From NCBI GenBank assembly GCA_964458455.1, contig CAYWIY010000001.1:2303-66302 (forward strand): a stretch of 64,000 nt of DNA, given 5' to 3'. The notes under the pieces were generated by a model. That model made no database searches. It saw nothing but the letters and a program-made list of their open reading frames with translations, and was not told where the DNA came from. The translations under genes and the position numbers were made by a program. Shown here in pieces: positions 309-38,208 of the stretch. Origin of the DNA: an uncultured Syntrophomonadaceae bacterium (GTDB lineage: Bacteria; Bacillota; Dethiobacteria; DTU022). Numbering within the stretch: the stretch's first letter is position 1; the number at the start of each line of letters is the position of its first letter.

Positions 309-1196
309 TTACCGCGAAAAATACTCCGCAACAAAGTCCTCCAGGTCCAGGTCTATTATAGCGTATTCAGCAACATCGGCATCATTAAAATGCCACCATT
401 CGCTTTCTATCGGGGTAAAGCCATTGTTGATCATCACTTCTGTCAGGTACTCCATGTTATCACGGGCTTCTCGCGGTATATCCGGGTAAGACCGGGAAGC
501 TTCGGCGGTAAAAACATCAAAGCCGGTGGGCATTTCCAGTTCTCTACCCTCTTCATCCACCAGGGTAACATCGACTGCGGCGCCGCGGTTATGGTTTGAC
601 CCGGTTTCCGGGTCGGCAACATAGACAGGATCCGGCTTTTCTTCCCAGAGCGCCTCCTGGACACTCAAGGGCCGGTAAGCATCCCAGATCTTGAGCCGGT
701 AACCGTCGGCCATGAACTCGGCATTGGCAGCAGCCAGTTTTTTCGCAGTTTCCTTCCTCAAAAGGCAAACCTCTACCGGGTAGAGCCGGCGGCCAGTAAA
801 ATTATCTTCTGTTGCGTACTTCAGTTCTACTTCCAGGCCGGGGCACAAATCCCTGACTTCGACCAGGCCTTTCATCTTAAATATCTCCCCTTCGACACCT
901 GTTCCTTCTTTCAGTGCTGCCTTTTCAGCCCTGGCCGATGCCAGTTCTTGTTCCAGGTCCCGGAGGTTTTCCTGCAAGTCCGCCCTTTCTATTTCAAGTT
1001 CTTCCACCCGGGCAGAAAGGACTTCAATTTGTTCTTTATCCCCGGCCCTCTGGACCAGCAATAACAGGTTAAAAACCAGCAGAACAGCTAAAAGAATACC
1101 GGCTAATGCGATCAAGCGGCCCATATTGTCTTTTAAAAGCCTGCGGAGGTCACGTTGCTCGCTTCCACCGACTGTCCGCTTACTACCGCCTGGCAA
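309..1196 (-). CDS. D-alanyl-D-alanine dipeptidase, VanX/DdpX type (peptidase M15D), with an N-terminal TM anchor and coiled-coil segment
   Basis: VanX signature motifs are present: KYATEDNFTG, SNHNRGAAVDVTL and EWWHF. The N-terminus has a hydrophobic helix (LIALAGILLAVLLVFNLLLL) followed by a heptad-like Glu/Leu-rich stretch. TTG start with RBS AGGAGAGGA. Confidence 0.8.
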   Translation of the reverse strand: MPGGSKRTVGGSEQRDLRRLLKDNMGRLIALAGILLAVLLVFNLLLLVQRAGDKEQIEVLSARVEELEIERADLQENLRDLEQELASARAEKAALKEGTGVEGEIFKMKGLVEVRDLCPGLEVELKYATEDNFTGRRLYPVEVCLLRKETAKKLAAANAEFMADGYRLKIWDAYRPLSVQEALWEEKPDPVYVADPETGSNHNRGAAVDVTLVDEEGRELEMPTGFDVFTAEASRSYPDIPREARDNMEYLTEVMINNGFTPIESEWWHFNDADVAEYAIIDLDLEDFVAEYFSR

Positions 1197-9215: not shown

Positions 9216-10175
9216 TTGACGAAATTAGCACAATACCTGCCTTACATGGCCGGGGTAGGCGTGGCCCTGACCTGGGGCTTTTCCTTCATGTTTACCAGGG
9301 GCGCGCTCGATCATCTCTCCCCTTTCCACCTGCTCGGCCTGCGCTTTGCCGCTGCCGTACTGGCCATGAGCCTGCTGCGGGTTTTCGGCCTGATCAAAAT
9401 CAAGGTTACACCCGCCGATTACGTTAACCTGTTGCCCCTGGCCCTGTTCCAACCGATCCTTTATTTTGCCACTGAAACAACCGGCATCCTGCTCACGTCA
9501 TCGTCCTACGCAGGAATGATGATCGCCATAATCCCCATTTTTGTGACCATATTTGCCGCTATTTTCCTGCGAGAGTACCCAAACCGGATCCAGCTCTTCT
9601 TTATTATCGCTTCAGTCGGGGGGGCAATCTTCATTATCTACATGGATGCCCAGTCCATCGCCGGGGCCAACCCTGTCGGCACCGCATTCCTTTTGGCCGC
9701 CGTTATCGCCGGGGCCAGCTTTAACATCTTTTCCCGCAAGGCTTCCATCAATCACCCTCCGGTGCGGACGACCTGGATCATGATGGTTTTTGGGGCAATA
9801 GTTTTTAACGCCATCGCCCTGGGGGAGCATTATAACGCCGGGGCAGTGAATGCTTACCTGGCGCCCCTGGCCGAGCAGTGGGTGCCTGTCCTCTATTTAG
9901 GAGTATTCTCATCGGTAGTAGCTTTTTTTCTCTATAATTTTGTCCTCAGCAAAATCACGGCTACCCAGGGCGCGGTATTTGCCAACATGGTCACTGTAGT
10001 CGCTATCACCGCCGGGGTGGTTTTCCGCGGGGAACTGGTCTTCTGGTACCACCTGGTCGGCACCGCCGCGATCCTGGCCGGGGTATGGGGGACCAACCGC
10101 TTTGCTCCCGCCGTCCTGGAAAGAAAACGGCAGAAAAAAATTGCCACAAGGGCCGCAGCCGGGGCCCGTGAATAA
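9216..10175 (+). CDS. EamA/DMT-superfamily transporter
   Basis: Ten predicted TM helices in two EamA-like halves. TTG start with RBS AAAGGGTGAG upstream. Confidence 0.8.
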   Translation: MTKLAQYLPYMAGVGVALTWGFSFMFTRGALDHLSPFHLLGLRFAAAVLAMSLLRVFGLIKIKVTPADYVNLLPLALFQPILYFATETTGILLTSSSYAGMMIAIIPIFVTIFAAIFLREYPNRIQLFFIIASVGGAIFIIYMDAQSIAGANPVGTAFLLAAVIAGASFNIFSRKASINHPPVRTTWIMMVFGAIVFNAIALGEHYNAGAVNAYLAPLAEQWVPVLYLGVFSSVVAFFLYNFVLSKITATQGAVFANMVTVVAITAGVVFRGELVFWYHLVGTAAILAGVWGTNRFAPAVLERKRQKKIATRAAAGARE

Positions 10176-10249: not shown

Positions 10250-11212
10250 TTAAGTTTTCAGCTTTTCCCGCATCGGCTTCATGTAACTGCTCGAAAGGTT
10301 GTAGCTGTCCCGCAGCCTGTTGACGATCTCATAGAGGCTGTTTTTGTAGGTTTTGTCCGCCCCGCCCTTTTTGTAAAGCGCCCTGTACTGCCCGGTAAGT
10401 TCGGGAAAGTGACTTTCCAGGAAATTAAAATAATAGGGCCTGGTTTTACCTCTTAGATAGAGGACACCGGGCAGGACGTAGTGGACAGCACCGTCCGCAG
10501 CAGCAGAAAACAGCCGGTCAAAGTTATCTTCGCCGTCGGTTAAAAAAGGGAGGATGGGCATGACATGCAGGCCAATCGAGGCATTGGTTTTCCTGAACTC
10601 CTTGAGCATAGCAAACCTCTTTGCGGAAGAAGCCGAGCCCGGCTCGATAACCGTTCGCAGGTTCTCGTCCATGGTGGTAATAGTCGAAGCCACGTTAATA
10701 TAGGTAATACGGGATAACCTGTCGATTAAATCGTAATCCCGCAGGATCAAATCGGACTTGGTGGAAATGATGGCCGGGGTTTTGTATTTGATCAGGAGCT
10801 TCAATATTTCGGGCATCAGGCGGTAGTGTTCTTCAGCCGGCTGGTAACTGTCGGTAACACCGCCGATATTGATCACTTCCCGCTTCCAGTTGCCTTCGCT
10901 TAGCTCCTTTTCCAGCAGTTCGGCAATATTTGTTTTTACATAGATATCAGAAAAGAAACCGCCTCCTGGCGCCGCTGAAACTGCCGCTTCCATCAAAGAT
11001 CGGGCCGGGGCTTTTGCCCTGGGCTGCTCAGCCTTTTCCGCTGCCGCCTCACAGTTTCTCTTAGAGCTGGAGCCAACATATTGATGGGAGTAAAGGGCGT
11101 AGCAGTAACGGCAGCCGTGGCTGCAGCCCCGGTAGATGTTCAGGTCCCAGGAATAGGGGATTTTTCGTTTCAACTTGTGCAGGGCGCTCGCAGCCTGGAT
11201 TTCTACCGCCAT
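10250..11212 (-). CDS. radical SAM protein, spore-photoproduct-lyase / DNA-repair-photolyase-like (COG1533-like)
   Basis: CxxxCxxC motif near the N-terminus (RGCSHGCRYCYA). 320 aa. Contains an Ala-rich low-complexity insert, EAAAEKAEQPRAKAPARSLMEAAVSAAPGGG. Confidence 0.55.
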   Translation of the reverse strand: MAVEIQAASALHKLKRKIPYSWDLNIYRGCSHGCRYCYALYSHQYVGSSSKRNCEAAAEKAEQPRAKAPARSLMEAAVSAAPGGGFFSDIYVKTNIAELLEKELSEGNWKREVINIGGVTDSYQPAEEHYRLMPEILKLLIKYKTPAIISTKSDLILRDYDLIDRLSRITYINVASTITTMDENLRTVIEPGSASSAKRFAMLKEFRKTNASIGLHVMPILPFLTDGEDNFDRLFSAAADGAVHYVLPGVLYLRGKTRPYYFNFLESHFPELTGQYRALYKKGGADKTYKNSLYEIVNRLRDSYNLSSSYMKPMREKLKT

Positions 11213-11408: not shown

Positions 11409-11954
11409 TCACATGCTCCCCTGGATAAGGCCTTCCCGTCCGGAAAAAGTCCTTTCCTCAGCACCGCTGTAATGCCCGGTGCTGAAGCGCATTTGCACCT
11501 GCTTAAGGGCGGCCAGATCATGGAGGGGGTTGCCGCGCATGGCAATCAATTCAGGCTTAAGGCCGCACCTGATCGCCCCCATGTCACCGTCAAGGCCTAC
11601 AATTTGCGCATTAGCGGCAGTAGCAGCCCTCAGGATAAAGCGGTTTGAAAGCGCGCCCCTGGCATACATAGACATTTCTGCGGTCAGCCCGGCGCCGTGT
11701 TTGACTCCCGGCGCGCGCGCATCGCTGCCCGCTCCCAGGATAACCCCGCTGTGCAGGGCAAAACGCAGCTTTTCGATGTGTTCCTCACAAATCTTTTCAA
11801 GCAAACCGCTGCTCTGGCCAGATCCGTCCTTAAACAAGCTATTTGCTGCCCCGGCGGCCACAGGGGAGATGGTGGGCACCCAGGCCACCTGATTTTCTGC
11901 CATCAATTGCAGGGTATCTTTTTCAGCATAGTAGCCGTGCTCGATTGAATCCAC
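11409..11954 (-). pseudogene. C-terminal fragment of a metal-dependent amidohydrolase (COG1228-like); the N-terminal half is missing
   Basis: The 181-aa ORF begins at the mid-protein IEHG motif. It aligns by eye with the C-terminal halves of the intact amidohydrolases at 15380 and 16707 (…IEHG…KxGSGSDxxG…DGDP…). No upstream N-terminal coding sequence exists because the next gene starts at 12003. Confidence 0.5.
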
Positions 11955-12002
11955 CCCGGCCTGGTCAGCTCTTTTTACTGCCGCATCAGAACTGGCATAA
12001 CG

Positions 12003-12230
12003 TTAAGTTGCGGCCCTGTCCTCGCCACGTTCCACCAGCATGTAAATAGCCGCTCCGAAAAGTACGAAAGCCATCAGGATTATCCACCCCGTTTTAGAAA
12101 GGTATTTAACATTACTGCGCTGCATAATATCGATTATCGCAAAAGCGATCAATACCAGGTTCAGGATAAGAACGATGGCGATAATAAATAAAATATCCAA
12201 GGTTTTTTTGCCTCCCTGCGAGCCTTTCAT
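12003..12230 (-). CDS. small 2-TM membrane protein, PLD-nuclease N-terminal-domain-like
   Basis: 75 aa with two hydrophobic helices and a short basic loop. Resembles the PLDc_N small-protein family. This is weak similarity judged by eye. Confidence 0.4.
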   Translation of the reverse strand: MKGSQGGKKTLDILFIIAIVLILNLVLIAFAIIDIMQRSNVKYLSKTGWIILMAFVLFGAAIYMLVERGEDRAAT

Positions 12231-12240
12231 TTCTAGCGGT

Positions 12241-13461
12241 TTAGCGCCGTTCTGAAAGGCTGATCAGCAGTTCATAAACGGTGCGGGCAACCTCAACTAC
12301 CTGATCATAATCGATTATTTCCGGTTTGTCATCAGGTGTATGAGCAATATCAAGCAAATCTTGCATGGCCGTCGAGGTAATGGCCAGTGCAGGGCGGCTG
12401 TTGTACAAAAACAGGCCGTGATCTCCCTGGTACCAGGGCTCTCCTTCGACAACACTGCTGCTATCAAAAACCTTCCGGGCAGCCGCTGAAACTTCCTCCG
12501 GGCAGTCATAGCAGGAGTAGGCGGCAGAACCGCCCCGGTAACCGGCCCCGTCAATGTTGATGCCCAGGACGATTTGATCAAACCGGTCCAGATTTTCTTC
12601 CAGGTAGAGCATTTCACCAGGGTTTGAATAATAGTCTTCACCGTTTAGGGCCGTCAGCTCCACCATCATCCGGCCGTTGTAACCGGCCAGCATTTCTGCA
12701 AGCAAGAGCAGCACAGCTGTGCCGGTGGCATTGTCAATCGCCCCGGGAGTGCCCTGCTTGCTGTCTATATGGGCTATGATTGCAACCCTTTCAGCTTGAT
12801 TTTCACCCCTGCGGCCGATGACATTATATCCTTTCGAGGGCTTTCTTTGCGTATCGATTTTCAAAAAGACTTCTTGCCCCTGGCTTACAGCAAGGAGCCT
12901 TTCTCCTTCGCTGTCGGTCATGTAGGCCCCGGGCAGGTTAAAGTCCCCGTCTTCGATTAAAGGAAAAGGATAGACACCCCCGGCTGTTTCCGGGTTACGT
13001 GAAGTGGCGGCAAGGACTGCTATAAAGCCTCTATTTTCAAGGAGTTCATTAATCCTGCGATGTTCATCAGGATTGTAAAAGGTAAAGTTTTTGGGCATCA
13101 GCTGTTCGGCTGCGATTTGCCCGTGCAGAAAAGCAATATTTCCTTTCGCTACTACCTGTTCCAGCTCTTCAATCGTGGCAGCAGCGCTCAAAGGGGCCTT
13201 GATTTCTCCGCCCAGGGTATAAGGATTGCTGAACACCTGGAAACTTTCATTTCCCACAACTACTTCAGAACCCCGGTCTTCCCAGTCGAAACAATCAAAG
13301 CCCGGTGTTTCAACCTGGAACCCAAACTCCCGCATAACCCCGGCGGCATAATCCGTCGCCTTCTTATTTCCCGGGCTGCCCACACAGCGTTCACCAATCT
13401 CCAGGCACAATTTACTGATATGGCGTTCAGTTCCTTTACTGTAGCGCAATTTGCCCATCAT
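12241..13461 (-). CDS. M28-family Zn peptidase (aminopeptidase-like), cytoplasmic
   Basis: M28 metal-ligand motifs are present (…AIIAHIDSKQG…, …DNATGTAVLLLLAE…, NGEDYYS). Preferred start is ATGATG at 13461, with RBS AGGGGAGGA 5 nt upstream. A plausible extended -10 (TGGTATAAT) lies further upstream. Confidence 0.8.
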   Translation of the reverse strand: MMGKLRYSKGTERHISKLCLEIGERCVGSPGNKKATDYAAGVMREFGFQVETPGFDCFDWEDRGSEVVVGNESFQVFSNPYTLGGEIKAPLSAAATIEELEQVVAKGNIAFLHGQIAAEQLMPKNFTFYNPDEHRRINELLENRGFIAVLAATSRNPETAGGVYPFPLIEDGDFNLPGAYMTDSEGERLLAVSQGQEVFLKIDTQRKPSKGYNVIGRRGENQAERVAIIAHIDSKQGTPGAIDNATGTAVLLLLAEMLAGYNGRMMVELTALNGEDYYSNPGEMLYLEENLDRFDQIVLGINIDGAGYRGGSAAYSCYDCPEEVSAAARKVFDSSSVVEGEPWYQGDHGLFLYNSRPALAITSTAMQDLLDIAHTPDDKPEIIDYDQVVEVARTVYELLISLSERR

Positions 13462-13532
13462 TATTCCTCCCCTATTATTCTCAACATCACAGAGCAACGA
13501 TATTATACCATAAGAATAAATGATCAGCGCAT

Positions 13533-13557
13533 TGATGCATTGTGCATTATTGCATCA
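13533..13557. promoter_or_regulatory. inverted repeat TGATGCA-N11-TGCATCA in the divergent M28/symporter intergenic region
   Basis: Perfect 7-bp arms, seen directly in the sequence. They are embedded in 8-nt periodic GCATTG repeats and sit about 215 bp upstream of the candidate sigma-54 promoter. Confidence 0.3.
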
Positions 13558-13577
13558 CTAAAATTGACATCCAATCA

Positions 13578-13609
13578 TTATTATGTTAATATTCATCTTA
13601 ACATAATAA
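13578..13609. promoter_or_regulatory. 12-bp perfect inverted repeat TTATTATGTTAA-N8-TTAACATAATAA
   Basis: Seen directly in the sequence. It lies about 165 bp upstream of the candidate sigma-54 promoter. This is a candidate enhancer-binding-protein or repressor site. Confidence 0.3.
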
Positions 13610-13761
13610 AGCCTTTTCAAACCGTAGGGTCTTTCACAATTACAACCTCCATATTGCTTTTAAATTTTATGATTTCTTTATTATAAAGTGGATTAGGTTC
13701 TAGCCGATTTCAATATAGCCTATCATTCCACTAAGGGGGCGATAAGAATGCTCTAATTTAA

Positions 13762-13779
13762 CCCGGCACGAGATTTGCA
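13762..13779 (+). promoter_or_regulatory. candidate sigma-54 (-24/-12) promoter for the symporter gene
   Basis: cCGGCACGagatTTGCAac matches the TGGCACG-N4-TTGCW consensus at 11 of 12 positions. The predicted TSS is about 30 nt upstream of the ATG at 13819. rpoN is encoded in this window. Confidence 0.5.
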
Positions 13780-13818
13780 ACCTCAATCTAATTAATGAAT
13801 ATGAAAGGATGAGACATC

Positions 13819-15237
13819 ATGGAATTTACACCAAGTCCAAGTTTACTGTATTTTGTTATTGCTTATGCTATTATTGTAGCAATTATTGGTTATGTTTGGT
13901 CTAGAAAAATTGTTACCACCGATGATTTTATGCTGGCAGGCAGATCGTTAGGGCCTATCATCCTGATGGGGACCTTGCTGGCAACCTGGATGGGTAGCGG
14001 AACAGTTACCGGTGGACCGAATTCAATGGCTTACAGCCACGGTTACTGGGTAGCAGTACTATATGCTACACCGGTGCTAATTGGTATTGCCGTTTTATAT
14101 TTCCTTTCCAACCGGGTCAGGTTACTTTCCAAGTACACCATACCCCAGATCCTTGAAATAAAGTACGGTCCTGTGGCAAGAGTGGTGGCTGTAATAATTA
14201 TCGTTCTTGCTTACCTGGGTATAGTTTCTTACCAATTCCAGGGTGTTGCCCTGGTCTTAAATGCGGCCACCGGGCTTGATATGGCCGCAGGGATTTGGAT
14301 TGCTCTTATACTTATGACATTTCTTGCCATGATCGGCGGTTTAATGTCAATCGCTCCTTCAGACGCCTTGAGTGCTTTTTTAATGGTAATTGGCCTCATC
14401 ATTGCAACACCGGTCATGATTGGCATTGCCGGGGGCTGGGACAACGTTGTAGCCAATGTTCCCGCCCAGCATTTCGAGCTTACTGGAAATATTGATTTTA
14501 TAACTGTTCTGGGATTATACTTTCCGATTCTATTCCTGGTCATGGGTGACCAAAACATGTGGCAGCGCATGACTGCTGCCAAAGAAGAAAAAGCAGGCAG
14601 AGGCGGTGTTATAGGCTGGTTCATAGGGGTTGCTGTTGCCATGCCCCTGGTAGGGACAATAGCTCTTTGCAGCAGGGCCATGTTCCCTGAAATCCCCCCC
14701 GGACAGGCTTTAATTGCCGCCACTACTGTTATGCCGGTATTTGTTGGTGGGGTTTTGTTAGCCGCAGCAACTGCATTTATTTTTACAACCGGTAATTCAT
14801 TCTTGCTGTCGGCATCTTCCAACTTAACTTATGATGTTTACGGACGTATTTTTAACAAGAACGCCACTTCCAAGCAGAACCTCATTTTTACCAGGCTCGC
14901 AATTCCCATTATGGCTCTTATCGCCTTTGTGTTAATCCAGTTTTTCCCCACCATCCTGGCCGTACAAATGTATTCTTACACTGTTTACGGTGCAGGTATC
15001 ACACCGGCCCTACTGGGTGCTGTCTTATGGAAAGGTGTTACTAAGGCCGGGGGTCTATCTTCGATGATAGCCGGTACTGTAGTTACTATTTTTTGGGAAA
15101 CAATGGATCAACCGTTTGACCTGGAGGCAGTTATTGTATCCGCACCAGTCGCTATTGTTGTCTTGATCGTAGTCTCTTTACTGACACCGGGGACAAGAAC
15201 CTCTATTGAAGAAGATGCAAGTATTAAAAGCGAATAA
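13819..15237 (+). CDS. sodium:solute symporter (SSS family) transporter
   Basis: 472 aa. The N-terminus (…DDFMLAGRSLGPIILMGTLLATWMGSGTVTGGPN…) is typical of SSS/PutP-like permeases. 13 predicted TM helices. RBS AAAGGA upstream. Confidence 0.85.
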   Translation: MEFTPSPSLLYFVIAYAIIVAIIGYVWSRKIVTTDDFMLAGRSLGPIILMGTLLATWMGSGTVTGGPNSMAYSHGYWVAVLYATPVLIGIAVLYFLSNRVRLLSKYTIPQILEIKYGPVARVVAVIIIVLAYLGIVSYQFQGVALVLNAATGLDMAAGIWIALILMTFLAMIGGLMSIAPSDALSAFLMVIGLIIATPVMIGIAGGWDNVVANVPAQHFELTGNIDFITVLGLYFPILFLVMGDQNMWQRMTAAKEEKAGRGGVIGWFIGVAVAMPLVGTIALCSRAMFPEIPPGQALIAATTVMPVFVGGVLLAAATAFIFTTGNSFLLSASSNLTYDVYGRIFNKNATSKQNLIFTRLAIPIMALIAFVLIQFFPTILAVQMYSYTVYGAGITPALLGAVLWKGVTKAGGLSSMIAGTVVTIFWETMDQPFDLEAVIVSAPVAIVVLIVVSLLTPGTRTSIEEDASIKSE

Positions 15238-15257
15238 TTAAACACGTTAGATTAATA

Positions 15258-15303
15258 ATTACAGGCCCTTCCCATTGGATAGGGCCTGTAATTAAATATT
15301 TTC
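15258..15303 (+). terminator. Rho-independent terminator after the symporter gene
   Basis: AATTACAGGCCC-loop-GGGCCTGTAATT stem followed by AAATATTTT. Confidence 0.55.
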
Positions 15304-15379
15304 CAGGATCTTAAAATGAATATTTATGATTTAACTTTTGCTGGATCTTACAGCATCTTACTAGTTAGGAGGAAAAATT

Positions 15380-16603
15380 TTGAGTTTACAACTATTTAAA
15401 AATGCCACCCTTTTTGATTGCACAGGAAATGATCCTGTTTACCCGGGTTGGGTGGTTGTAGAAAACGATCTTATTAAGGAAACCGGCAGCGGGCCGGAAC
15501 CAAAGTTGAGCGGCGCTGAAGTGATAGACTGCAACGGAAAAACTCTCATGCCGGGGTTAATTGATGCTCATATCCACGCCTCCCTTTATGCTAACGACAT
15601 TTCAGAATTACACCGTAAATACCTGCCTTCCATGGGCTGCTTTAAAGCGGCAAAAATCCTGGAAGATACTCTCGACCAGGGTTATACTACTGTAAGAGAC
15701 GCAGGTGGAGCCGATGCAGGTTTCAGGGATGCACAGGTACAGGGATTAATAAAAGGCCCCAGGATGCAAGTTTGTGGCCGGGTCCTCTCAATGACCGGGG
15801 GGCACGCCGATGCCCGTCTTCCCACTGAGGTTGCCCCTCCTATTGAAACGGGAATGCTTGGAGTAATTGCCGACGGGGTGGAAGAAGTACGCAGGGCTGC
15901 CCGGGAACAACTCAGGCAAGGAGCAGATTACATTAAAATTATGGCCGGTGGTGGATGCGCAAGCCCGGCAGATGAGCCCGATACTGTCCAATATTCTCCT
16001 GAGGAAATATCGGCAATAGTGTATGAAGCAGAGGCAGCCGGCAAGAAAGTGCTTTCCCATAATTATTCAACCCGCAGTATGCAGTTATGTGCAGAATCCG
16101 GTGTCTACAGCATTGAGCACGGCAATTACCTGGATAATGAAACTGCTGCTGTTCTGAAAAAACACGGGTGCTGGCTGGTTCCGACCATGGCCACATATGA
16201 AATAATGGCCACCCGCGGTGAAGAATTTGGAATACCACCCTACTTCCTGCGTAAAATGAGAGAAGTCCAGCAACATTCAGAGCAGGCCCTTTCCATCGCA
16301 TTCAAAGAAGGTGTTAAAATCGGTTCCGGTTCAGACATGGTCGGTTCGGGACAGCCATTTAAGGCCCTTGAAATTGAATTAAAAGCCCGGGTAATGGGCT
16401 CGATGAAAGCGCTGCTATGCACAACCAGGGACAATGCCGAATTAATGGGCCTGTCCGACAGGGTCGGCACTATTGAACCCGGGAAATATGCCGATTTAAT
16501 CATTGTTGATGGCGATCCCCTGGAAGATGTCCGCATTCTACAAAATCGAGACAATATCAAGGCTATCGTCCAGGGTGGCTGTTTCATAAAGAACATATTA
16601 TAA
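15380..16603 (+). CDS. metal-dependent amidohydrolase (COG1228 / imidazolonepropionase-related family)
   Basis: HxH motif (LIDAHIHAS), …HNYS…, …IEHG… and DGDP near the C-terminus. TTG start with RBS AGGAGG 8 nt upstream. Confidence 0.85.
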   Translation: MSLQLFKNATLFDCTGNDPVYPGWVVVENDLIKETGSGPEPKLSGAEVIDCNGKTLMPGLIDAHIHASLYANDISELHRKYLPSMGCFKAAKILEDTLDQGYTTVRDAGGADAGFRDAQVQGLIKGPRMQVCGRVLSMTGGHADARLPTEVAPPIETGMLGVIADGVEEVRRAAREQLRQGADYIKIMAGGGCASPADEPDTVQYSPEEISAIVYEAEAAGKKVLSHNYSTRSMQLCAESGVYSIEHGNYLDNETAAVLKKHGCWLVPTMATYEIMATRGEEFGIPPYFLRKMREVQQHSEQALSIAFKEGVKIGSGSDMVGSGQPFKALEIELKARVMGSMKALLCTTRDNAELMGLSDRVGTIEPGKYADLIIVDGDPLEDVRILQNRDNIKAIVQGGCFIKNIL

Positions 16604-16608
16604 ATTAC

Positions 16609-16648
16609 AAGGACGAGACGGTAGCTACATTAAGTCTCGTCCTTTTTA
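16609..16648 (+). terminator. Rho-independent terminator between the two amidohydrolase genes
   Basis: AAGGACGAGAC-loop-GTCTCGTCCTT followed by TTTT. Confidence 0.55.
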
Positions 16649-16706
16649 TATCTTCTTATCCCTGAATCAATCAGGATCAGCAAAATATTTCTATAATGGG
16701 GTATAT

Positions 16707-17897
16707 TTGATGGAAACTCTTCTCACAGGAATAAATGTTGTAGATGTAAGAAACGGCTCTATCGAAAACAACACCAATCTACTAATTAAGGACCATTACA
16801 TCGCCGAATACATAAAGGATAAAAATGACTACCTGGCCAACAACCAGCAAACTAAGGTATTGGACTGCAAAGGTTGTTACGCCATCCCTGGATTGATAGA
16901 CCTGCATGTTCATCTAATGTGGAGCGGGGGGACAGATCCCCAGGAAACTGTTGAAAAAGAAGGTCTACAAACAACAATTTTAAGGGCGGCACAAAATGCT
17001 TACAAGAATTTATCCTCAGGAATTACCACAGTGAGAGACCTGGGCTCTCACGCGAATGCTGCTATAGCGATTAATAAAGCGATTGAAAACGGTTACATAA
17101 GCGGCAGCAGGGTAGTTCCAGCCGGCATGAGCGTCATCATGACCGGTGGACATGACCCTTTTTGGGGCAATGAAGCAGATGGGGTTGATGAGGTAATCAA
17201 AGCGGTGCGGAAACAAGTTTTAGCAGGGGCAAAAGTAATTAAGGTATCAGCAACCGGCGGAGTTTACGGCCGAGCCGAAGGTGAGGAGGTGGAAAATACT
17301 GAGCTTACTTTTGAAGAACTTAAGGCAATAGTACAGGAAAGCCACCGCCTTGGCCTAAAAGTGGCAGCTCATTCTATTTCCTGGCTGGGTATAAAAAATT
17401 GTGTAGAAGCAAAAGTAGACAGCATTGAACACGGCCATTTTTTAACAGAGGAATTATGCGATCAAATGTCTGATAGTGGTTTGGCTTTGGTCCCCACCCT
17501 TTACATTTATAAAAAAATAGCTGAAGGAGTCAACGTTCCTGCTTATGCCACAGAAAAAGCTAAAACTATAACCAGTAAACATAAACAAGCATTTAACCAT
17601 GCTTTAAACAAAAATGTCCTGCTCGGTTCAGGATCCGATGCCGGATCGCCGAATCTTCCCCACCCAGCCCTTGTAGATGAACTTGAGTGCATGGTTGAAA
17701 GTGGAGCCTCAGAGCTCAAGACATTGCAAGCATCCACTGTAGATTCCGCCAGAATTCTTGGTTACGATGACATCCTGGGCCTTGTTGAAAAAGGTAAGCT
17801 TGCTGACTTGCTGATAACAACCGACAATCCCCTGGATGATATCTCTAACTTGCGAAAAATCAAGTATGTGTTTAAGGAAGGCCAATTGATCAGTTAA
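16707..17897 (+). CDS. metal-dependent amidohydrolase, paralogue of the 15380 gene
   Basis: Same motif set (LIDLHVHLMWSG, …AAHS…, IEHGHF, SGSDAG). The true start is probably the ATG at 16710. Confidence 0.85.
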   Translation: MMETLLTGINVVDVRNGSIENNTNLLIKDHYIAEYIKDKNDYLANNQQTKVLDCKGCYAIPGLIDLHVHLMWSGGTDPQETVEKEGLQTTILRAAQNAYKNLSSGITTVRDLGSHANAAIAINKAIENGYISGSRVVPAGMSVIMTGGHDPFWGNEADGVDEVIKAVRKQVLAGAKVIKVSATGGVYGRAEGEEVENTELTFEELKAIVQESHRLGLKVAAHSISWLGIKNCVEAKVDSIEHGHFLTEELCDQMSDSGLALVPTLYIYKKIAEGVNVPAYATEKAKTITSKHKQAFNHALNKNVLLGSGSDAGSPNLPHPALVDELECMVESGASELKTLQASTVDSARILGYDDILGLVEKGKLADLLITTDNPLDDISNLRKIKYVFKEGQLIS

Positions 17898-17989
17898 AGG
17901 TCTGAAAAATCTACTTTCCTGGCTATCATATAGAAAGGGTTTTTGTAGTTTCCTTGCAGTTAAAGGAACCAAAAACCCTTTAAATATAG

Positions 17990-18064
17990 TGGTGGGGACG
18001 GAGGGTTTTGAACCCACGGCCTCTTGAATGTGAATCAAGCGCTCTCCCCCTGAGCTACGTCCCC
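17990..18064 (-). tRNA. tRNA-Val (anticodon CAC), CCA encoded
   Basis: Minus-strand sequence GGGGACGTAGCTCAGGGGGAGAGCGCTTGATTCACATTCAAGAGGCCGTGGGTTCAAAACCCTCCGTCCCCACCA. It has a 7-bp acceptor stem, D and T arms, and an anticodon loop TTCACAT. Confidence 0.9.
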
Positions 18065-18179
18065 GTATGTTCTTCTATTCATCTATAATTCCATAATATT
18101 GCTACAAGCATTATAGCATACATTTTTTATAGGTGAAAACAATTGGATAGATGACTTTTTTGAGCATGGCTGAGACAAA

Positions 18180-19016
18180 TTAATAAACAACATCCTGCAC
18201 TATATCATTTCCCCGTTGAGAAAGGCCGTAGCTTTCCAGCTCTTTTTTAATTAGAGCCGGGTCTCCGTAGCCACCTCCAATGCCGTTCAGCCTGGCGGCA
18301 ACGGTTGAGTCGACCAGGCCTTCAATATCAGGGTAATAGGCCTTTATTTCAATCGCCAGTTCTTCTACGTTCTGCAGATAATATTTCTGGTGGTAATCTT
18401 CAGCCAGGTAGAATTTATCCAGGGGCTGAACCTCAGTGTGGATTTTTGTACCCAACTGTCGCTCCACTGCTTCTTTACTTTGCCTGGCTGCATCTTCCTG
18501 ACCTTCATTGTGAAAAAGTATTATGGCCATATACTGCCTGGACCAGCTCCTGGAAGCAGGGTTGTGGTTGGCCCAAAATATTTCCAGGATCTCTTCATAG
18601 GAGAGCTTATCAGGATCATAATCGATTTGAAAAACTTCTGTGTGGTCGCCAAGACGATGATAAGTAGGATTATCGAGGATCCCGCCCGCATAACCAACAC
18701 GGGTCCTGTATACGCCTTCTAACTGCCCGAACCGGGCATCCGGACCCCAAAATCAGCCCAGGCCTAAAGTTGCCGTCTCCAGCTTCAGGGGAACCTGGAG
18801 GTCCAGCGGCGGTTTTGAGTCATTCAAAAAAGCCTTTTCCTGTTCCATATCATAATTATCCTTTCCATATTCAGATTGGTAGCCAGCTTTGTTGTCATTT
18901 CTATTTATAATTGATATACTCTCGTTTTCGTTATACACGATAATCAAAAACAACACAATCATAACTAAAGCTAGAAAAGGCAGCACACGGTAAATTAGAA
19001 TTGTTTTTGGAAACAT
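18180..19016 (-). CDS. msrA: peptide methionine sulfoxide reductase MsrA with an in-frame TGA at the catalytic Cys position (candidate selenocysteine) and an N-terminal signal anchor
   Basis: ORFs 18753..19043 and 18180..18530 are in the same frame, separated only by TGA at 18750..18752. The read-through protein is …LKLETATLGLG-U-FWGPDARFGQLEGVYRTRVGYAGG…AEDYHQKYYLQN…, which is the MsrA GCFWG active-site motif with TGA replacing TGC. Best start is ATG at 19016 (RBS GGAAAGGA 6 nt upstream), giving an N-terminal TM helix ILIYRVLPFLALVMIVLFLIIVY. Confidence 0.65.
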
Positions 19017-30716: not shown

Positions 30717-30790
30717 CTTAAAACCTCCAGCATTTATCACTATATGTTAAGCACACGATATTTTAACATATAAACGCAGCTTTGACAAAC

Positions 30791-35651: not shown

Positions 35652-37103
35652 TTATGATCGGCGGCGTTTGTAGGAAGGGGCAATAGATAACTCCTCCCTG
35701 TATTTAGCTACGGTCCGCCTTGATATTTGAATGCCTTTCTCATTTAAGAGCTCGGCCAGGCGCTGGTCGCTGAACGGTTTGGCCTGGTCCTCGGATTCAA
35801 CCAGCTCCCGGATATGGGTTTTGATGCTTGGTGCGGAATGATCGCTCCCATCCGCACCCCCCAGCCCGCTGGAAAAGAAAAATTTTAGGGGAAACAGGCC
35901 GCGGGGGGTTTGGATATACTTATTAGCGGCGGCGCGGCTGACCGTCGATTCGTGGACGCCTACATTGGAGGCTACTTCTTTGAGGGTTAGGGGTTTCAAC
36001 TTTTTGATCCCGTGATCCAGAAACTCTTTCTGGATATCAACAATCTGTTGGGCTACCTTATAGAGGGTTATCCTTCTTTGCTCAATACTGCGGATTAACC
36101 AGTAGGCTTTTTCTATCTTGTTTTTGACAAAGGTAAAAAGCTGCTCGTCTATCGAATCGCTTTTCAGCATCTTATGGTAAAATGGGCTGATTGTCAGCTG
36201 GGGCATTCCTGCTTCGTTACCGGTAACCACATATTCATCGTCAACCTTTTCTACAATAACGTCGGGAACTATATAGCGGGTTTCTTCTCCTTCACCGTAA
36301 ATACTGCCCGGTTTGGGGTTAAGGGTGCGGATAAATTCAACCGCCTCTTCGACGGTCTTTTCATTACAATCCAACCGTGAAGCGATGTAGCGGTACCTGC
36401 CGTCCGCAGCTGCCGGCAGGTAATGGTTGACTATTTCAACAGCCACCCTGGGCGGATTGTCCATCTTTTGAATCTGAAGGAGCAGGCATTCCTGTAAGCT
36501 CCGGCAGCCAATACCGGTTGGCTCCAACCTCTGAACTACCCTGAGAGCTTTTTCCAGCTCCCCCAGTTTAACACCCAGGACCGGGGCCAGTTCTTCAAGA
36601 TCGCCCTGCAGGTAACCATTGCGATCAAGATTGCCTGCCAGGAAGGCAGCAAGCCTGTACTGCCGGTCGGTAAGCGAAAACATGCGCAGCTGGCTGAGCA
36701 GGTCTTCAAGCATTGTGCCGGTCATGCCGGCACAATTTTCTACCGTCGGTTGGCTGTCGTTAACTTGCTTAACACTTCCGCCCCTGTCGGAGGCCGAGTC
36801 CAGGCCCATATCTCTAAAGTATTCTTCCCAGGGAAAATCATTTCCATAGATCTGCTCTTCATTCTTATCGGGGCTTTCCCCGTCCACTTCATCTTCTTCA
36901 TTTTTTTCCTCTTCCCGGTTTTCCATAACTTCCAAAACTGGGTTATTGATAAGTTCTTCCTGGATATGATCTTGCAGTTCCAGAGCGGAGTACTGCAGAA
37001 GAGTTATGGCCAGCTTAAGCTCAGGGGTAATGATCAGTTTTTGGCTTTGTTCCAGCTTCAGGCTGTAATCAAGCTTCACTGTTATCTCTCCCGCCTTCCT
37101 CAT
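35652..37103 (-). CDS. rpoN: RNA polymerase sigma-54 factor
   Basis: 483 aa. N-terminal Gln/Leu-rich activator-interacting region, an acidic linker, and a C-terminal RpoN box (…ISRRTVAKYREEL…). Confidence 0.9.
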   Translation of the reverse strand: MRKAGEITVKLDYSLKLEQSQKLIITPELKLAITLLQYSALELQDHIQEELINNPVLEVMENREEEKNEEDEVDGESPDKNEEQIYGNDFPWEEYFRDMGLDSASDRGGSVKQVNDSQPTVENCAGMTGTMLEDLLSQLRMFSLTDRQYRLAAFLAGNLDRNGYLQGDLEELAPVLGVKLGELEKALRVVQRLEPTGIGCRSLQECLLLQIQKMDNPPRVAVEIVNHYLPAAADGRYRYIASRLDCNEKTVEEAVEFIRTLNPKPGSIYGEGEETRYIVPDVIVEKVDDEYVVTGNEAGMPQLTISPFYHKMLKSDSIDEQLFTFVKNKIEKAYWLIRSIEQRRITLYKVAQQIVDIQKEFLDHGIKKLKPLTLKEVASNVGVHESTVSRAAANKYIQTPRGLFPLKFFFSSGLGGADGSDHSAPSIKTHIRELVESEDQAKPFSDQRLAELLNEKGIQISRRTVAKYREELSIAPSYKRRRS

Positions 37104-37236: not shown

Positions 37237-38208
37237 TCAGTAATTGGCACGGTTTTTGCTGGGAACTTCCCCGCTCTCAGTCTTGCGATCAAACATTTTG
37301 CTCAGCTGGCGAAAACGATGGTTCATCCCCGATTTGCTAACAGGTGGATCGAGCTTTTTGCCCAGTTCTTTCAGGGAAGCATCCGGGTACCTCATTCTGG
37401 CCAGGGCTGCATCACGGAGGGCTGGAGGGAGGTTTTCCAGGCCGACAATATTGTCGGCACGTTCTATTAAATCAAGCTGCTGCTGGGCCGACGCCACCAC
37501 TTTTTCCAGGTTGGCCGTTTCACAGTTGACGACCCGGTTGACCTGGTTTCGCATGCTTCTAACCACACGCATGCTCTCCAACTCCAGCAGGGTTCCCCCT
37601 GCCCCGATAATCCTCAGAAAATCGGCAATGGCTTCTGCACTTTTAAAGTAGAGATAGGCATAGCCTTCACGTTTTCTAAGCAGGGGCGTTAAATTAAACA
37701 GCCCGAGCACTTTTCGGTAAATCCGGGCATCTTCCAGGCTTCCGCAGTTTATTTCCAGGTGGTAACCGGAGCGCCTGGTTATGCTGATACCGCCTCCGGC
37801 TAAATAAACACCCCTGAGAAAGGCCCGGCGGCAGCAGGTCCTTTTTGGAATCACTGTATTCAGGCGGGGTAGACTCAGGTAACGGCCGGCCTCTTTCATA
37901 TCCAGGTAGACCAGCAGGGCATCGATCTGCTCGTTTCCGCTAACCTGGACCAGGAAGCGGGTTTTATCGAGGCGTTTTTCCTGTTCTCTGATAATAGAAG
38001 GGGTCTCCACCCCGGCCTGCCTGAGCAAGTTAAACAGGCGCCGGGCAACAGCGCTGTCTTCAACGGCAATGATCAGGGCATGCGTATTTCGGCGAATAGC
38101 GTAATAACCATTCCTGAGAAGAAGTGACTTTAACTCCCAGGAACCGCAGCATGCCAGGGGCTCTTCCAACCTGGCCAGTTCATGTTTCACCTGCCTGGTT
38201 AAAGACAA
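37237..38208 (-). CDS. whiA: DNA-binding protein WhiA
   Basis: 323 aa. N-terminal CC pair (LACCGSWEL) within LAGLIDADG-like repeats, and a C-terminal HTH. Confidence 0.9.
   Translation of the reverse strand: MSLTRQVKHELARLEEPLACCGSWELKSLLLRNGYYAIRRNTHALIIAVEDSAVARRLFNLLRQAGVETPSIIREQEKRLDKTRFLVQVSGNEQIDALLVYLDMKEAGRYLSLPRLNTVIPKRTCCRRAFLRGVYLAGGGISITRRSGYHLEINCGSLEDARIYRKVLGLFNLTPLLRKREGYAYLYFKSAEAIADFLRIIGAGGTLLELESMRVVRSMRNQVNRVVNCETANLEKVVASAQQQLDLIERADNIVGLENLPPALRDAALARMRYPDASLKELGKKLDPPVSKSGMNHRFRQLSKMFDRKTESGEVPSKNRANY

Follow-up and report, generated by a model that had tools for sequence, protein, structure and literature searches.

How did genes for a sodium:solute symporter (SSS) and two amidohydrolases (AH1 and AH2) come to lie between an aminopeptidase gene and a tRNA-Val gene, and what does this group of genes do? 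The question is raised by a stretch of 64 kb (the window) of contig CAYWIY010000001.1, from an uncultured Syntrophomonadaceae bacterium. A preliminary description had presented the three genes as an AT-richer, acquired module with the signature of a tRNA-adjacent island, transcribed from a near-consensus sigma-54 promoter. The features that it named (the symporter, the two amidohydrolases, tRNA-Val, the sigma-54-like site and the inverted repeats) were all recovered at the same coordinates, which are window positions here and throughout. The principal ones are the following.

13513..17988, plus strand: inserted accessory block (regulatory region, SSS, AH1, AH2 and terminator), with boundaries approximate to a few bases.
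13819..15237, plus strand: SSS, sodium:solute symporter of 472 aa (PF00474, E 1e-31).
15380..16603, plus strand: AH1, M38 family of the amidohydrolase superfamily (PF01979, E 2e-48).
16707..17897, plus strand: AH2, second M38 amidohydrolase (PF01979, E 7e-42), with its likely start codon at ATG 16710.
17990..18064, minus strand: tRNA-Val(cac) (ARAGORN and Rfam).
12241..13458, minus strand: M28 aminopeptidase, the ancestral divergent neighbour outside the insertion (PF04389; G+C content at third codon positions, GC3, 0.53).

Taking the evidence together, we consider it probable that the block is an accessory catabolic cassette inserted in this Firmicute lineage between the M28 promoter and the spacer that flanks tRNA-Val. 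The cassette is a genuine but ordinary accessory uptake-and-hydrolysis module. It joins elements of known kinds, namely an SSS transporter, M38 amidohydrolases and possibly a sigma-54-controlled amino-acid-related operon.

Absence of the Cassette from the Same Site in Some Relatives

Related contigs, which come from soda-lake sediment metagenomes, were recovered by protein searches, and the junctions were set by nucleotide alignment. Those that cover the M28 locus are listed below.

L170: module-bearing; 99% nucleotide identity to the window.
L084: module-bearing; about 97% nucleotide identity to the window.
L081 (GCA_003552005.1): module-bearing; module at 93.9% nucleotide identity, flanking M28 gene at only 87.9%.
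L164 (GCA_007121075.1): module-less; M28 gene at 90.9% nucleotide identity to the window.
L165: module-less; M28 protein the same as that of L164, and JGI sample the same as that of L084.
L166 and L167: module-less; M28 gene at 78% nucleotide identity; contig names that point to soda-lake sediment.

The block is found at the M28 locus in four near-identical or close contigs, the window included, and it is missing at the syntenic site in L164, L165, L166 and L167. The gene order in the module-less contigs is tRNA-Ala, beta-helix, (Wzy/TPR), msrA, tRNA-Val, a spacer with a 53-aa open reading frame (ORF) and M28, followed by a 65-aa ORF, (AH3 and a radical-SAM gene), EamA and, further on, transketolase. 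Homology between the window and both L164 and L166 ends at position 13512 and restarts at 17990. The left junction is located directly past the extended -10 of the M28 gene (ACGATATTATACCATA, window ~13512), and the right junction directly past the terminal hairpin of the cassette. The extended -10 promoter that the preliminary description had assigned to the M28 gene is real: its sequence, TGGTATAAT (minus strand, plus-strand coordinates 13502..13510), is conserved in every relative, and the same promoter precedes M28 in the four module-less contigs. The empty sites of L164 and L166 contain mutually homologous filler that does not occur in the module-bearing copies, from which it follows that the site was originally empty and that the block was inserted into it. 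The insertion replaced about 38 bp, and the junction alignments showed no target-site duplication.

These comparisons make the inserted, accessory status of the block very nearly certain. They bear out the proposal that the module was acquired, since the syntenic locus lacks it in relatives whose M28 genes are 91% and 78% identical and its ORFs are also present in an unrelated contig, L171; comparison with close relatives did not place the module at this locus in all of them. Module-bearing L084 and module-less L165 co-occur in JGI sample 3300027784 (Ga0207421), which shows one community to be polymorphic for the presence of the module. The block would have entered between the ancestral M28 promoter and the spacer flanking tRNA-Val, and it carried its own 300-bp control region into the locus; this regulatory region is confined to the lineage with the block next to M28.

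The opposite history, in which the locus had the module from the start and two lineages (L164/L165 and L166/L167) each deleted it independently, was also considered. The region is indeed prone to deletions (836 bp and 817 bp are missing from the window, and AH3 and the radical-SAM gene from L164), and the M28 gene of module-less L164 (90.9%) is nearer to that of the window than the M28 gene of module-bearing L081 (87.9%). Nevertheless, two independent deletions would not recreate the filler common to L164 and L166, and neither the GC3 of the module, 2-3 standard deviations (SD) below that of host genes, nor its presence in the unrelated context of L171 speaks for long residence here. In addition, the identity between the window and L081 is higher in the module (93.9%) than in the M28 flank (87.9%), as spread by recombination predicts. 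We regard the deletion history as very improbable, and insertion of the block remains the preferred reading.

The cassette and its parts were also found away from the M28 locus. L171 contains exactly window 13819..17921, that is, the DNA from the SSS start codon to 24 nt beyond the AH2 stop, at 87.5% nucleotide identity; its flanks are unrelated and have no palindromes, no sigma-54 element and no tRNA. In L172 and L173, a protein 78% identical to AH1 is encoded straight after an SSS only 43% identical to that of the window, forming a tight SSS-AH1 pair with no AH2. Symporters 73-79% identical are present in L082 and L083, where the next gene is AH2-like (L082) or AH1-like (L083), and the full trio is found in many Actinobacteria with separate orthologues of AH1 (37-41%) and AH2 (42-48%). 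Since AH2 is missing from the SSS-AH1 operons of L172 and L173, it is an add-on to the core, and the core unit is the SSS with an AH1-type enzyme. The two amidohydrolases had been described as paralogous. They are, with all metal motifs aligned, but they are not close: they share 34% identity, and Actinobacteria have a separate orthologue of each, which makes the paralogy ancient.

Base Composition

The deviation in composition that the preliminary description reported was found. The GC3 values of SSS, AH1 and AH2 are 0.44, 0.46 and 0.41 versus 0.57 +/- 0.06 for the remaining genes of the window, which places the cassette 2-3 SD under the host genes, and its regulatory region has 33% GC. The low GC3 of the three genes thus stands, but the claim that the AT-richer DNA ends at tRNA-Val does not. 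The dip continues to about 23.5 kb; msrA and the Wzy/TPR and beta-helix genes past tRNA-Val have GC3 values of 0.44-0.47, equal to that of the cassette, giving a low-GC stretch from ~13.5 to 23.5 kb, up to tRNA-Ala at 23.5 kb. These genes (18.2..23.5 kb; Wzy/TPR, 918 aa; beta-helix, 476 aa) are syntenic in all relatives from tRNA-Val to tRNA-Ala. Therefore, low GC3 alone is no evidence of recent acquisition. The low GC3 of 18.2..23.5 kb would stem either from an acquisition of older date or from codon usage that is relaxed locally.

The tRNA-Val Gene Is an Ancestral Flank

The block today directly adjoins tRNA-Val at its 3′ end, its composition departs from that of the host genes and its presence is polymorphic. 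All three are what would be observed if an integrase had inserted a classic tRNA-targeted island at that 3′ end and the gene for the integrase had later been lost. The relatives, however, show that module and tRNA were originally apart. The distance from the cassette terminator to tRNA-Val is 817 bp in L084 and 569 bp in L081, and this spacer includes a conserved ORF of 53-56 aa; the module-less loci retain a homologous spacer between tRNA-Val and M28 (~530 bp in L164), and tRNA-Val itself is 100% identical in module-less L164. Because this ancestral spacer separates the module from tRNA-Val in L084 and L081 and is present in the empty loci, the insertion took place at its M28-proximal end, originally 0.5-0.8 kb from tRNA-Val. 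The present contact was produced by an 817-bp deletion (window 17988/17990), specific to the window and L170, after which the terminal hairpin of the cassette abuts the 3′ end of tRNA-Val.

An integrase gene or its remnant was found neither in the block nor near tRNA-Val in L084 and L081, where the additional DNA codes only for the 53-56 aa ORF that is also present in the module-less loci. Neither a partial copy of tRNA-Val nor a direct repeat of its end was detected across 8-24 kb, where the sole repeat involving tRNA-Val is its similarity to tRNA-Ala, and the insertion replaced ~38 bp with no duplication of the target. The cassette therefore resembles tRNA-associated genomic islands in its compositional deviation, strain-specific presence and place beside a tRNA 3′ end, and it differs from them in having no integrase and no attachment-site (att) repeat and in not being inserted at the tRNA. 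The tRNA-Val gene is an ancestral flank and not the integration site, and the contact is secondary. As it was proposed, the tRNA-targeted island is refuted by the spacer, the missing integrase and the missing att repeat, and even with subsequent loss of the integrase gene it is extremely improbable. The three textbook cues (lower GC, a neighbouring tRNA and no integrase) led to the right answer for the wrong reason, as the tRNA was not involved in the acquisition.

The DNA missing from the window corresponds to L084 10187..11003 and L081 5273..5841. The ORF of 53-56 aa that it encodes (MFKVGDKVKSRFGIEYEI...) has a strong ribosome-binding site and is common to module-bearing and module-less relatives.

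Predicted Functions of the Enzymes and the Transporter

AH1 gave full-length matches to PDB entries 3mkv (E 6e-93) and 3feq/3n2c (E 2e-85), and its metal-centre motifs HIH, IKIMA, SHNY, IEHG and GSGSD (HxH, carbamylated Lys, His, His and Asp, the metal ligands of a (beta/alpha)8 amidohydrolase) align with those of 3mkv and 3feq. In its full-length alignment and in all binuclear-metal motifs, it is like Sgx9260b and Sgx9260c, the 'mis-annotated prolidases' of family M38 (3MKV, 3FEQ/3N2C). Sgx9260 enzymes hydrolyse Xaa-Pro dipeptides and N-acyl-prolines (PMC11511702). AH1 differs from them in being too diverged for a safe transfer of specificity, and whereas the Sgx enzymes were characterised in isolation, AH1 is accompanied by genes for a dedicated SSS transporter and a second paralogue. 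AH2 aligned over residues 4-395 with the motifs HVH, IKVSA, AHSI, IEHG and GSGSD present, and its PDB matches were 9kov (E 3e-58), 2qs8 (E 5e-55), 3mtw, which is Cc2672 (E 5e-49), and 3be7 (E 5e-49). It belongs to the Cc2672 / 2qs8 / 3be7 / ochratoxinase-like branch, with an orthologue in Actinobacteria at 44-48%. In similarity and catalytic motifs it is like the L-Xaa-L-Arg/Lys carboxypeptidases Cc2672 and Sgx9355e and the ochratoxinase-type enzymes (3MTW, 3BE7, 2QS8, 4C5Y, 8IHQ), all of which act on dipeptides or N-acyl amino acids and free the C-terminal amino acid. Unlike Cc2672 and Sgx9355e, AH2 carries no substrate assignment from its sequence.

The symporter matches PF00474 over residues 37-419 and profile positions 1-406 of 406. 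Family, length (~470 aa) and full-length profile coverage are those of PutP and OpuE (proline) and PanF (pantothenate), but unlike PutP and PanF the protein lies below the equivalog cutoffs (118.8 bits versus 515.5 for PutP; 106.4 versus 328 for PanF) and falls in a separate clade marked by prolidase-type hydrolase neighbours. By these scores, it is classed as a subfamily of its own, separate from PutP and PanF. The genes adjacent to its homologues vary with identity as follows.

48-59% identity, 27 loci: adjacent M24 hydrolase in 25, M38 in 1.
35-47% identity, 40 loci: adjacent M38 orthologues of AH1/AH2 in 25, M24 in 2.
Below 35% identity, 92 loci: no adjacent M24 or M38 hydrolase.

The M24 partners are PepQ-like (NCBIfam NF040821), with scores of 205-212 bits versus 82-85 for DoeA, and their best PDB match is the prolidase 1pv9 (177 bits versus 82 for creatinase 1chm). 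An assignment as creatinase or ectoine hydrolase, considered for their Creatinase_N domain and for EctC-like and creatininase neighbours, was rejected as the PepQ/prolidase scores dominate. Two unrelated prolidase folds thus alternate beside one transporter clade, which argues that the transporter supplies the substrate of the prolidase.

The preliminary description put forward a peptide or N-modified amino acid as the substrate that is taken up and hydrolysed. The homologies fit this proposal, which we refine to proline-type substrates. Uptake and hydrolysis of peptides or N-acyl-amino acids is the likely role of the module, and a proline-type substrate (Xaa-Pro or N-acyl-Pro) has just under an even chance. 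According to this scheme, the SSS would import a small amide-bond solute, most likely Xaa-Pro dipeptides or N-acyl-prolines, AH1, judging from its homologues, would cleave the imported substrate in the cytoplasm, and AH2 would widen or complete the hydrolysis with release of free amino acids.

Some observations weigh against this scheme. The scores of AH1 and AH2 with the Xaa-Pro dipeptidase model NCBIfam NF051886 (258 and 262 bits; cutoff 500) are far under the equivalog cutoff, and substrate specificity is consequently inferred and not established. We know of no SSS transporter that carries dipeptides, and the symporter could simply import free proline. In that case, the SSS would take up free L-proline like OpuE or PutP, the hydrolases would act on peptides that enter by other systems, and the genes would be clustered only because all feed the proline or amino-acid pool. 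The best named models for the symporter are indeed PutP and PanF, and many homologues are annotated as sodium:proline symporters. Most homologues are from halophiles, in which proline is an osmoprotectant. Moreover, the partners of the homologue in L007 include a proline/sarcosine-dehydrogenase-like complex, and L051 has a PrdR-like regulator. On the other hand, the PutP score is far under its cutoff, and the near-obligate pairing with a cytoplasmic prolidase of either fold is simpler if the transporter delivers the substrate of the hydrolase. Import of free proline, the more conservative alternative, is possible but unlikely, and import of the hydrolase substrate is the reading that we retain.

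The pairing of this SSS clade with prolidases of two unrelated folds at ~50 loci is the most useful lead of the analysis: it predicts the substrate class, Xaa-Pro or N-acyl-Pro, and it gives a physiological context to Sgx9260-type amidohydrolases, so far characterised only in vitro. In its most extended form, the proposal is that the symporter clade comprises the first SSS importer of Xaa-Pro/N-acyl-Pro, in an import-and-cleave unit with a prolidase swapped between folds, which spreads free of mobility genes and has an orphan sigma-54 promoter. That whole combination is doubtful. If it is true, the prolidase would be of the M24 PepQ-like type in Bacilli and Peptococcaceae, whereas this lineage and Actinobacteria would have M38 amidohydrolases; the version with three genes would spread without a mobility gene and would have here an orphan sigma-54 promoter whose bacterial enhancer-binding protein (bEBP) is encoded elsewhere.

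Two neighbours of symporter homologues were of other kinds. A solitary cupin of the ectoine-synthase family is encoded in L001, from a halophilic Bacillus relative (9241..9642), and a creatininase-family protein in L006 (9067..9834). These suggest metabolism of compatible solutes or guanidino compounds.

Transcription of the Cassette

The elements upstream of the symporter gene, and the sigma-54 gene of the window, are listed below.

13764..13779, plus strand: sigma-54-type -24/-12 element CGGCACG-AGAT-TTGCA, with 11/12 consensus positions and GG-N10-GC spacing.
13533..13557, no strand assigned: palindrome 1, TGATGCA-N11-TGCATCA, with perfect 7-bp arms and an 11-nt spacer.
13578..13609, no strand assigned: palindrome 2, TTATTATGTTAA-N8-TTAACATAATAA, with perfect 12-bp arms and an 8-nt spacer.
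13564..13592, plus strand: sigma-70-type promoter candidate TTGACA-17-TAATAT with TG extended -10, 10/12 plus TG.
35652..37103, minus strand: rpoN (sigma-54), with Sigma54_AID, Sigma54_CBD and Sigma54_DBD domains (E 1e-64).

The match to the sigma-54 consensus at 11 of 12 positions was confirmed. Transcription from this element is predicted to start near 13790, ~30 nt before the ATG. The window also contains rpoN, in the order whiA-rpoN-pgk-tpi-pgm-eno that is typical of Firmicutes, and the host is able to use -24/-12 promoters. As had been noted, no bEBP gene accompanies the module: a motif scan of six-frame ORFs of the 64-kb window found no GAFTGA or Walker A motif, and phmmer with a bEBP query gave no hit (E<=10). 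Most EBP genes of Clostridiales adjoin their targets, although 38/263 do not (PMC6615313).

The scan for other sigma-54 sites identified one further match in the window, which is perfect (12/12), at 37244..37260 (TTGGCACGGTTTTTGCT, plus strand). It lies antisense in the last codons of whiA (stop 37237..37239), ~140 bp upstream of the rpoN start and facing away from it, and its role may be that of an antisense promoter or of sigma-54 autoregulation; an exact match of this kind is expected ~0.015 times per window.

The two palindromes had been interpreted as enhancers. Both are perfect and in the positions described, but only palindrome 2 is statistically meaningful. Arms of at least 7 bp arose in 52% of Markov-1 simulations of the region, and the spacer of palindrome 1 has a 5-bp insertion in L081; on its own, palindrome 1 is probably not meaningful. 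In contrast, 12-bp arms arose in 0/2000 Markov-1 simulations. The arms of palindrome 2 are perfect in L084 and L170, and L081 has two mismatches in the right arm. Palindrome 2 is located ~172 bp upstream of the -24 element, and in Clostridiales upstream activating sequences (UAS), or enhancers, are typically found 100-250 bp upstream (PMC6615313). It matches no known UAS motif and overlaps the sigma-70-type -10. We consider it a candidate protein-binding site, either a bEBP enhancer or an operator over the -10/+1 region of the sigma-70-type promoter. No regulon was apparent for its motif, which among the loci occurs only in the L084 and L170 copies and in a single L010 match. The only other occurrence of the palindrome-2 core in the window, ATGTTAA-N12-TTAACAT at 30744..30769, has a different spacer and lies just downstream of eno; it is probably a terminator-like hairpin.

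Relatives with the block at the M28 locus provide natural variants of the sigma-54 element. Its core (GGCACG and TTGCA) is unchanged in L170 and L084, and both differences of L084 are in the N4 spacer. The L081 variant is CTAGTAAAATAATTGCA, in which the -24 box is destroyed by changes at 5/7 positions, all to A or T. This proportion compares with 20/127 in the adjoining aligned region (Fisher P 0.0025) and is not significant in a scan-wide permutation test (P 0.17). L081 also has the two palindrome 2 mismatches and a ~130-bp insertion between both elements, and the whole looks like joint decay after loss of constraint. Within the insertion (L081 ~860..980; window 13690/13691) is a degenerate GGCAAAATTTTTGA string similar to the sigma-54 promoter of L007, with GA replacing the -12 GC.

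L007 encodes a symporter 53% identical to that of the window with a sigma-54 promoter upstream, TTGGCACAAATTTTGCT (TTGGCAC-N5-TTGCT), and its sister contig L051 encodes an adjacent bEBP that scores best with the PrdR model (597 bits, under the 795 cutoff). Together they represent an operon of Peptococcaceae metagenome-assembled genomes (L007 1..9232 and L051 956..8295) composed of the PrdR-like bEBP, the sigma-54 promoter, SSS, a PepQ-like M24 prolidase, a Fer2/Pyr_redox_2/Fer4/SoxA-A3/DAO complex, which is proline/sarcosine-dehydrogenase-like, and an aldehyde:ferredoxin oxidoreductase; the SSS and M24 genes of L051 are fragmented. The cassette is like the PrdR-type sigma-54/EBP control of Clostridia (PMC6615313) in having a -24/-12 element upstream of an amino-acid-related uptake gene and a palindrome 100-250 bp upstream, and the orthologous symporter of L007/L051 has that arrangement with a PrdR-like EBP. 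It is unlike PrdR-type control in that no EBP gene is nearby, the TGT-N10-12-ACA motif is missing, the promoter is not in all copies and a sigma-70 alternative exists. We propose that the SSS gene would be read from the sigma-54-type promoter at 13764..13779, with a bEBP encoded in trans, possibly PrdR-like, bound to palindrome 2. Whether the promoter is functional is in our estimation evenly balanced, and the same applies to this mode of control.

Several results count against a sigma-54 promoter. Its -26 position is C instead of T, and sites with at most one mismatch are expected by chance 0.74 times per window, at least two being found in 15/100 shuffles. As the site count is not significant, the site at 13764 is notable only by its position, ~40 nt upstream of and co-oriented with the start codon. 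The missing bEBP, the destroyed -24 box of L081, the lack of any sigma-54 element upstream of SSS in L171, L172, L173 and L082, and the lack of a PrdR-type TGT-N10-12-ACA enhancer motif in the window, L007 and L051 point in the same direction. So do the hexamers and TG of the sigma-70-type candidate, which are identical in all four copies at the locus (window, L170, L084 and L081), and the related SSS-AH1 operons of L172 and L173, which have TTGACA/G-17-TATGAT promoters, long leaders and no sigma-54 site.

Most of these results would also fit purely sigma-70 regulation, with a start near 13599, palindrome 2 as the operator of a repressor encoded elsewhere, and a sigma-54-like sequence in the ~220-nt leader that is fortuitous or vestigial; under it, the copy without a -24 box (L081) would still have a promoter of 10/12 plus TG. 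Promoter-like sites are nonetheless common in the 33% GC region, 25 being found versus 10.8 expected in 12000..18600. Furthermore, the GC-rich -24 box is kept within an AT-rich spacer in three copies, and in the fourth it decayed specifically to A/T, a pattern that suggests past or present constraint. A leader of ~220 nt would also have no structure or known RNA element to explain its length: the leader (228 nt) folds no better than shuffles (z = 0.14), and Rfam searches of the whole window at the gathering threshold, and of 13440..13900 at E<=1, found no riboswitch or leader RNA in the regulatory region. For L172 and L173, the RNA-element search of the leaders yielded nothing but noise below threshold. 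Exclusive sigma-70 control is a possibility of real weight, though it stays somewhat below an even chance. With the sigma-54 promoter as the working proposal, the sigma-70-type promoter at 13564..13592 may act as a second or alternative start. The existence of natural variants with and without the -24 box makes the choice between sigma-54 and sigma-70 a well-posed question.

Hairpins and Terminators within the Cassette

Three inverted repeats follow the three genes.

15256..15294, plus strand: intercistronic hairpin between SSS and AH1, with perfect 14-bp arms.
16609..16649, plus strand: intrinsic terminator after AH1, AAGGACGAGAC-N14-GTCTCGTCCTT then TTTTT, with perfect 11-bp arms.
17928..17987, no strand assigned: terminator hairpin that closes the cassette, an inverted repeat conserved in L084 and L081.

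Four sequences share an unchanged core of the SSS-AH1 hairpin, and a compensatory change from T.A to C.G was found in the outer stem in L171; the hairpin may be an attenuator or an mRNA-stability element. In the window, L084, L081 and L171, the terminator after AH1 keeps its stems unchanged while its loop varies. The conserved hairpin after SSS and the terminator after AH1 make it unlikely that the three genes form a single, uniformly expressed operon, which counts against reading the module as one simple transcription unit. Their conservation is observed directly, and both elements would probably modulate the downstream genes. A dedicated promoter for AH2 (TATAAT, 16692..16697) was considered and rejected as it is not conserved in L171. 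The closing hairpin is followed by the spacer in L084 and L081, and this spacer is deleted in the window.

Neighbouring Genes

Beyond the M28 gene lies the remnant of another amidohydrolase.

11409..11954, minus strand: AH3, remnant of a third M38 amidohydrolase (partial Pfam and NCBIfam hits).

The remnant comprises the C-terminal 160 residues only and lacks the HxH, Lys and first His motifs. An 836-bp deletion at 11996/11997 relative to L084 removed the N-terminal two-thirds. AH3 is intact in L084 and L166 (429-430 aa) and is ancestral to the locus; a recent duplication of AH1 or AH2 was rejected as its origin, the identity to either being only 29-31%. Within the adjacent Rv2578c-like radical-SAM gene, a 107-bp segment (10958..11064) is missing from L084, whose product has 284 aa versus 320 aa in the window.

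On the other side of tRNA-Val, msrA (18180..~18990, minus strand) has an in-frame TGA at 18753..18755 in place of the catalytic Cys codon (G-U-FWG). The product has an N-terminal hydrophobic anchor and, downstream of the TGA, the helical domain of selenoprotein MsrA (PF20939), features that make this MsrA a candidate selenoprotein.

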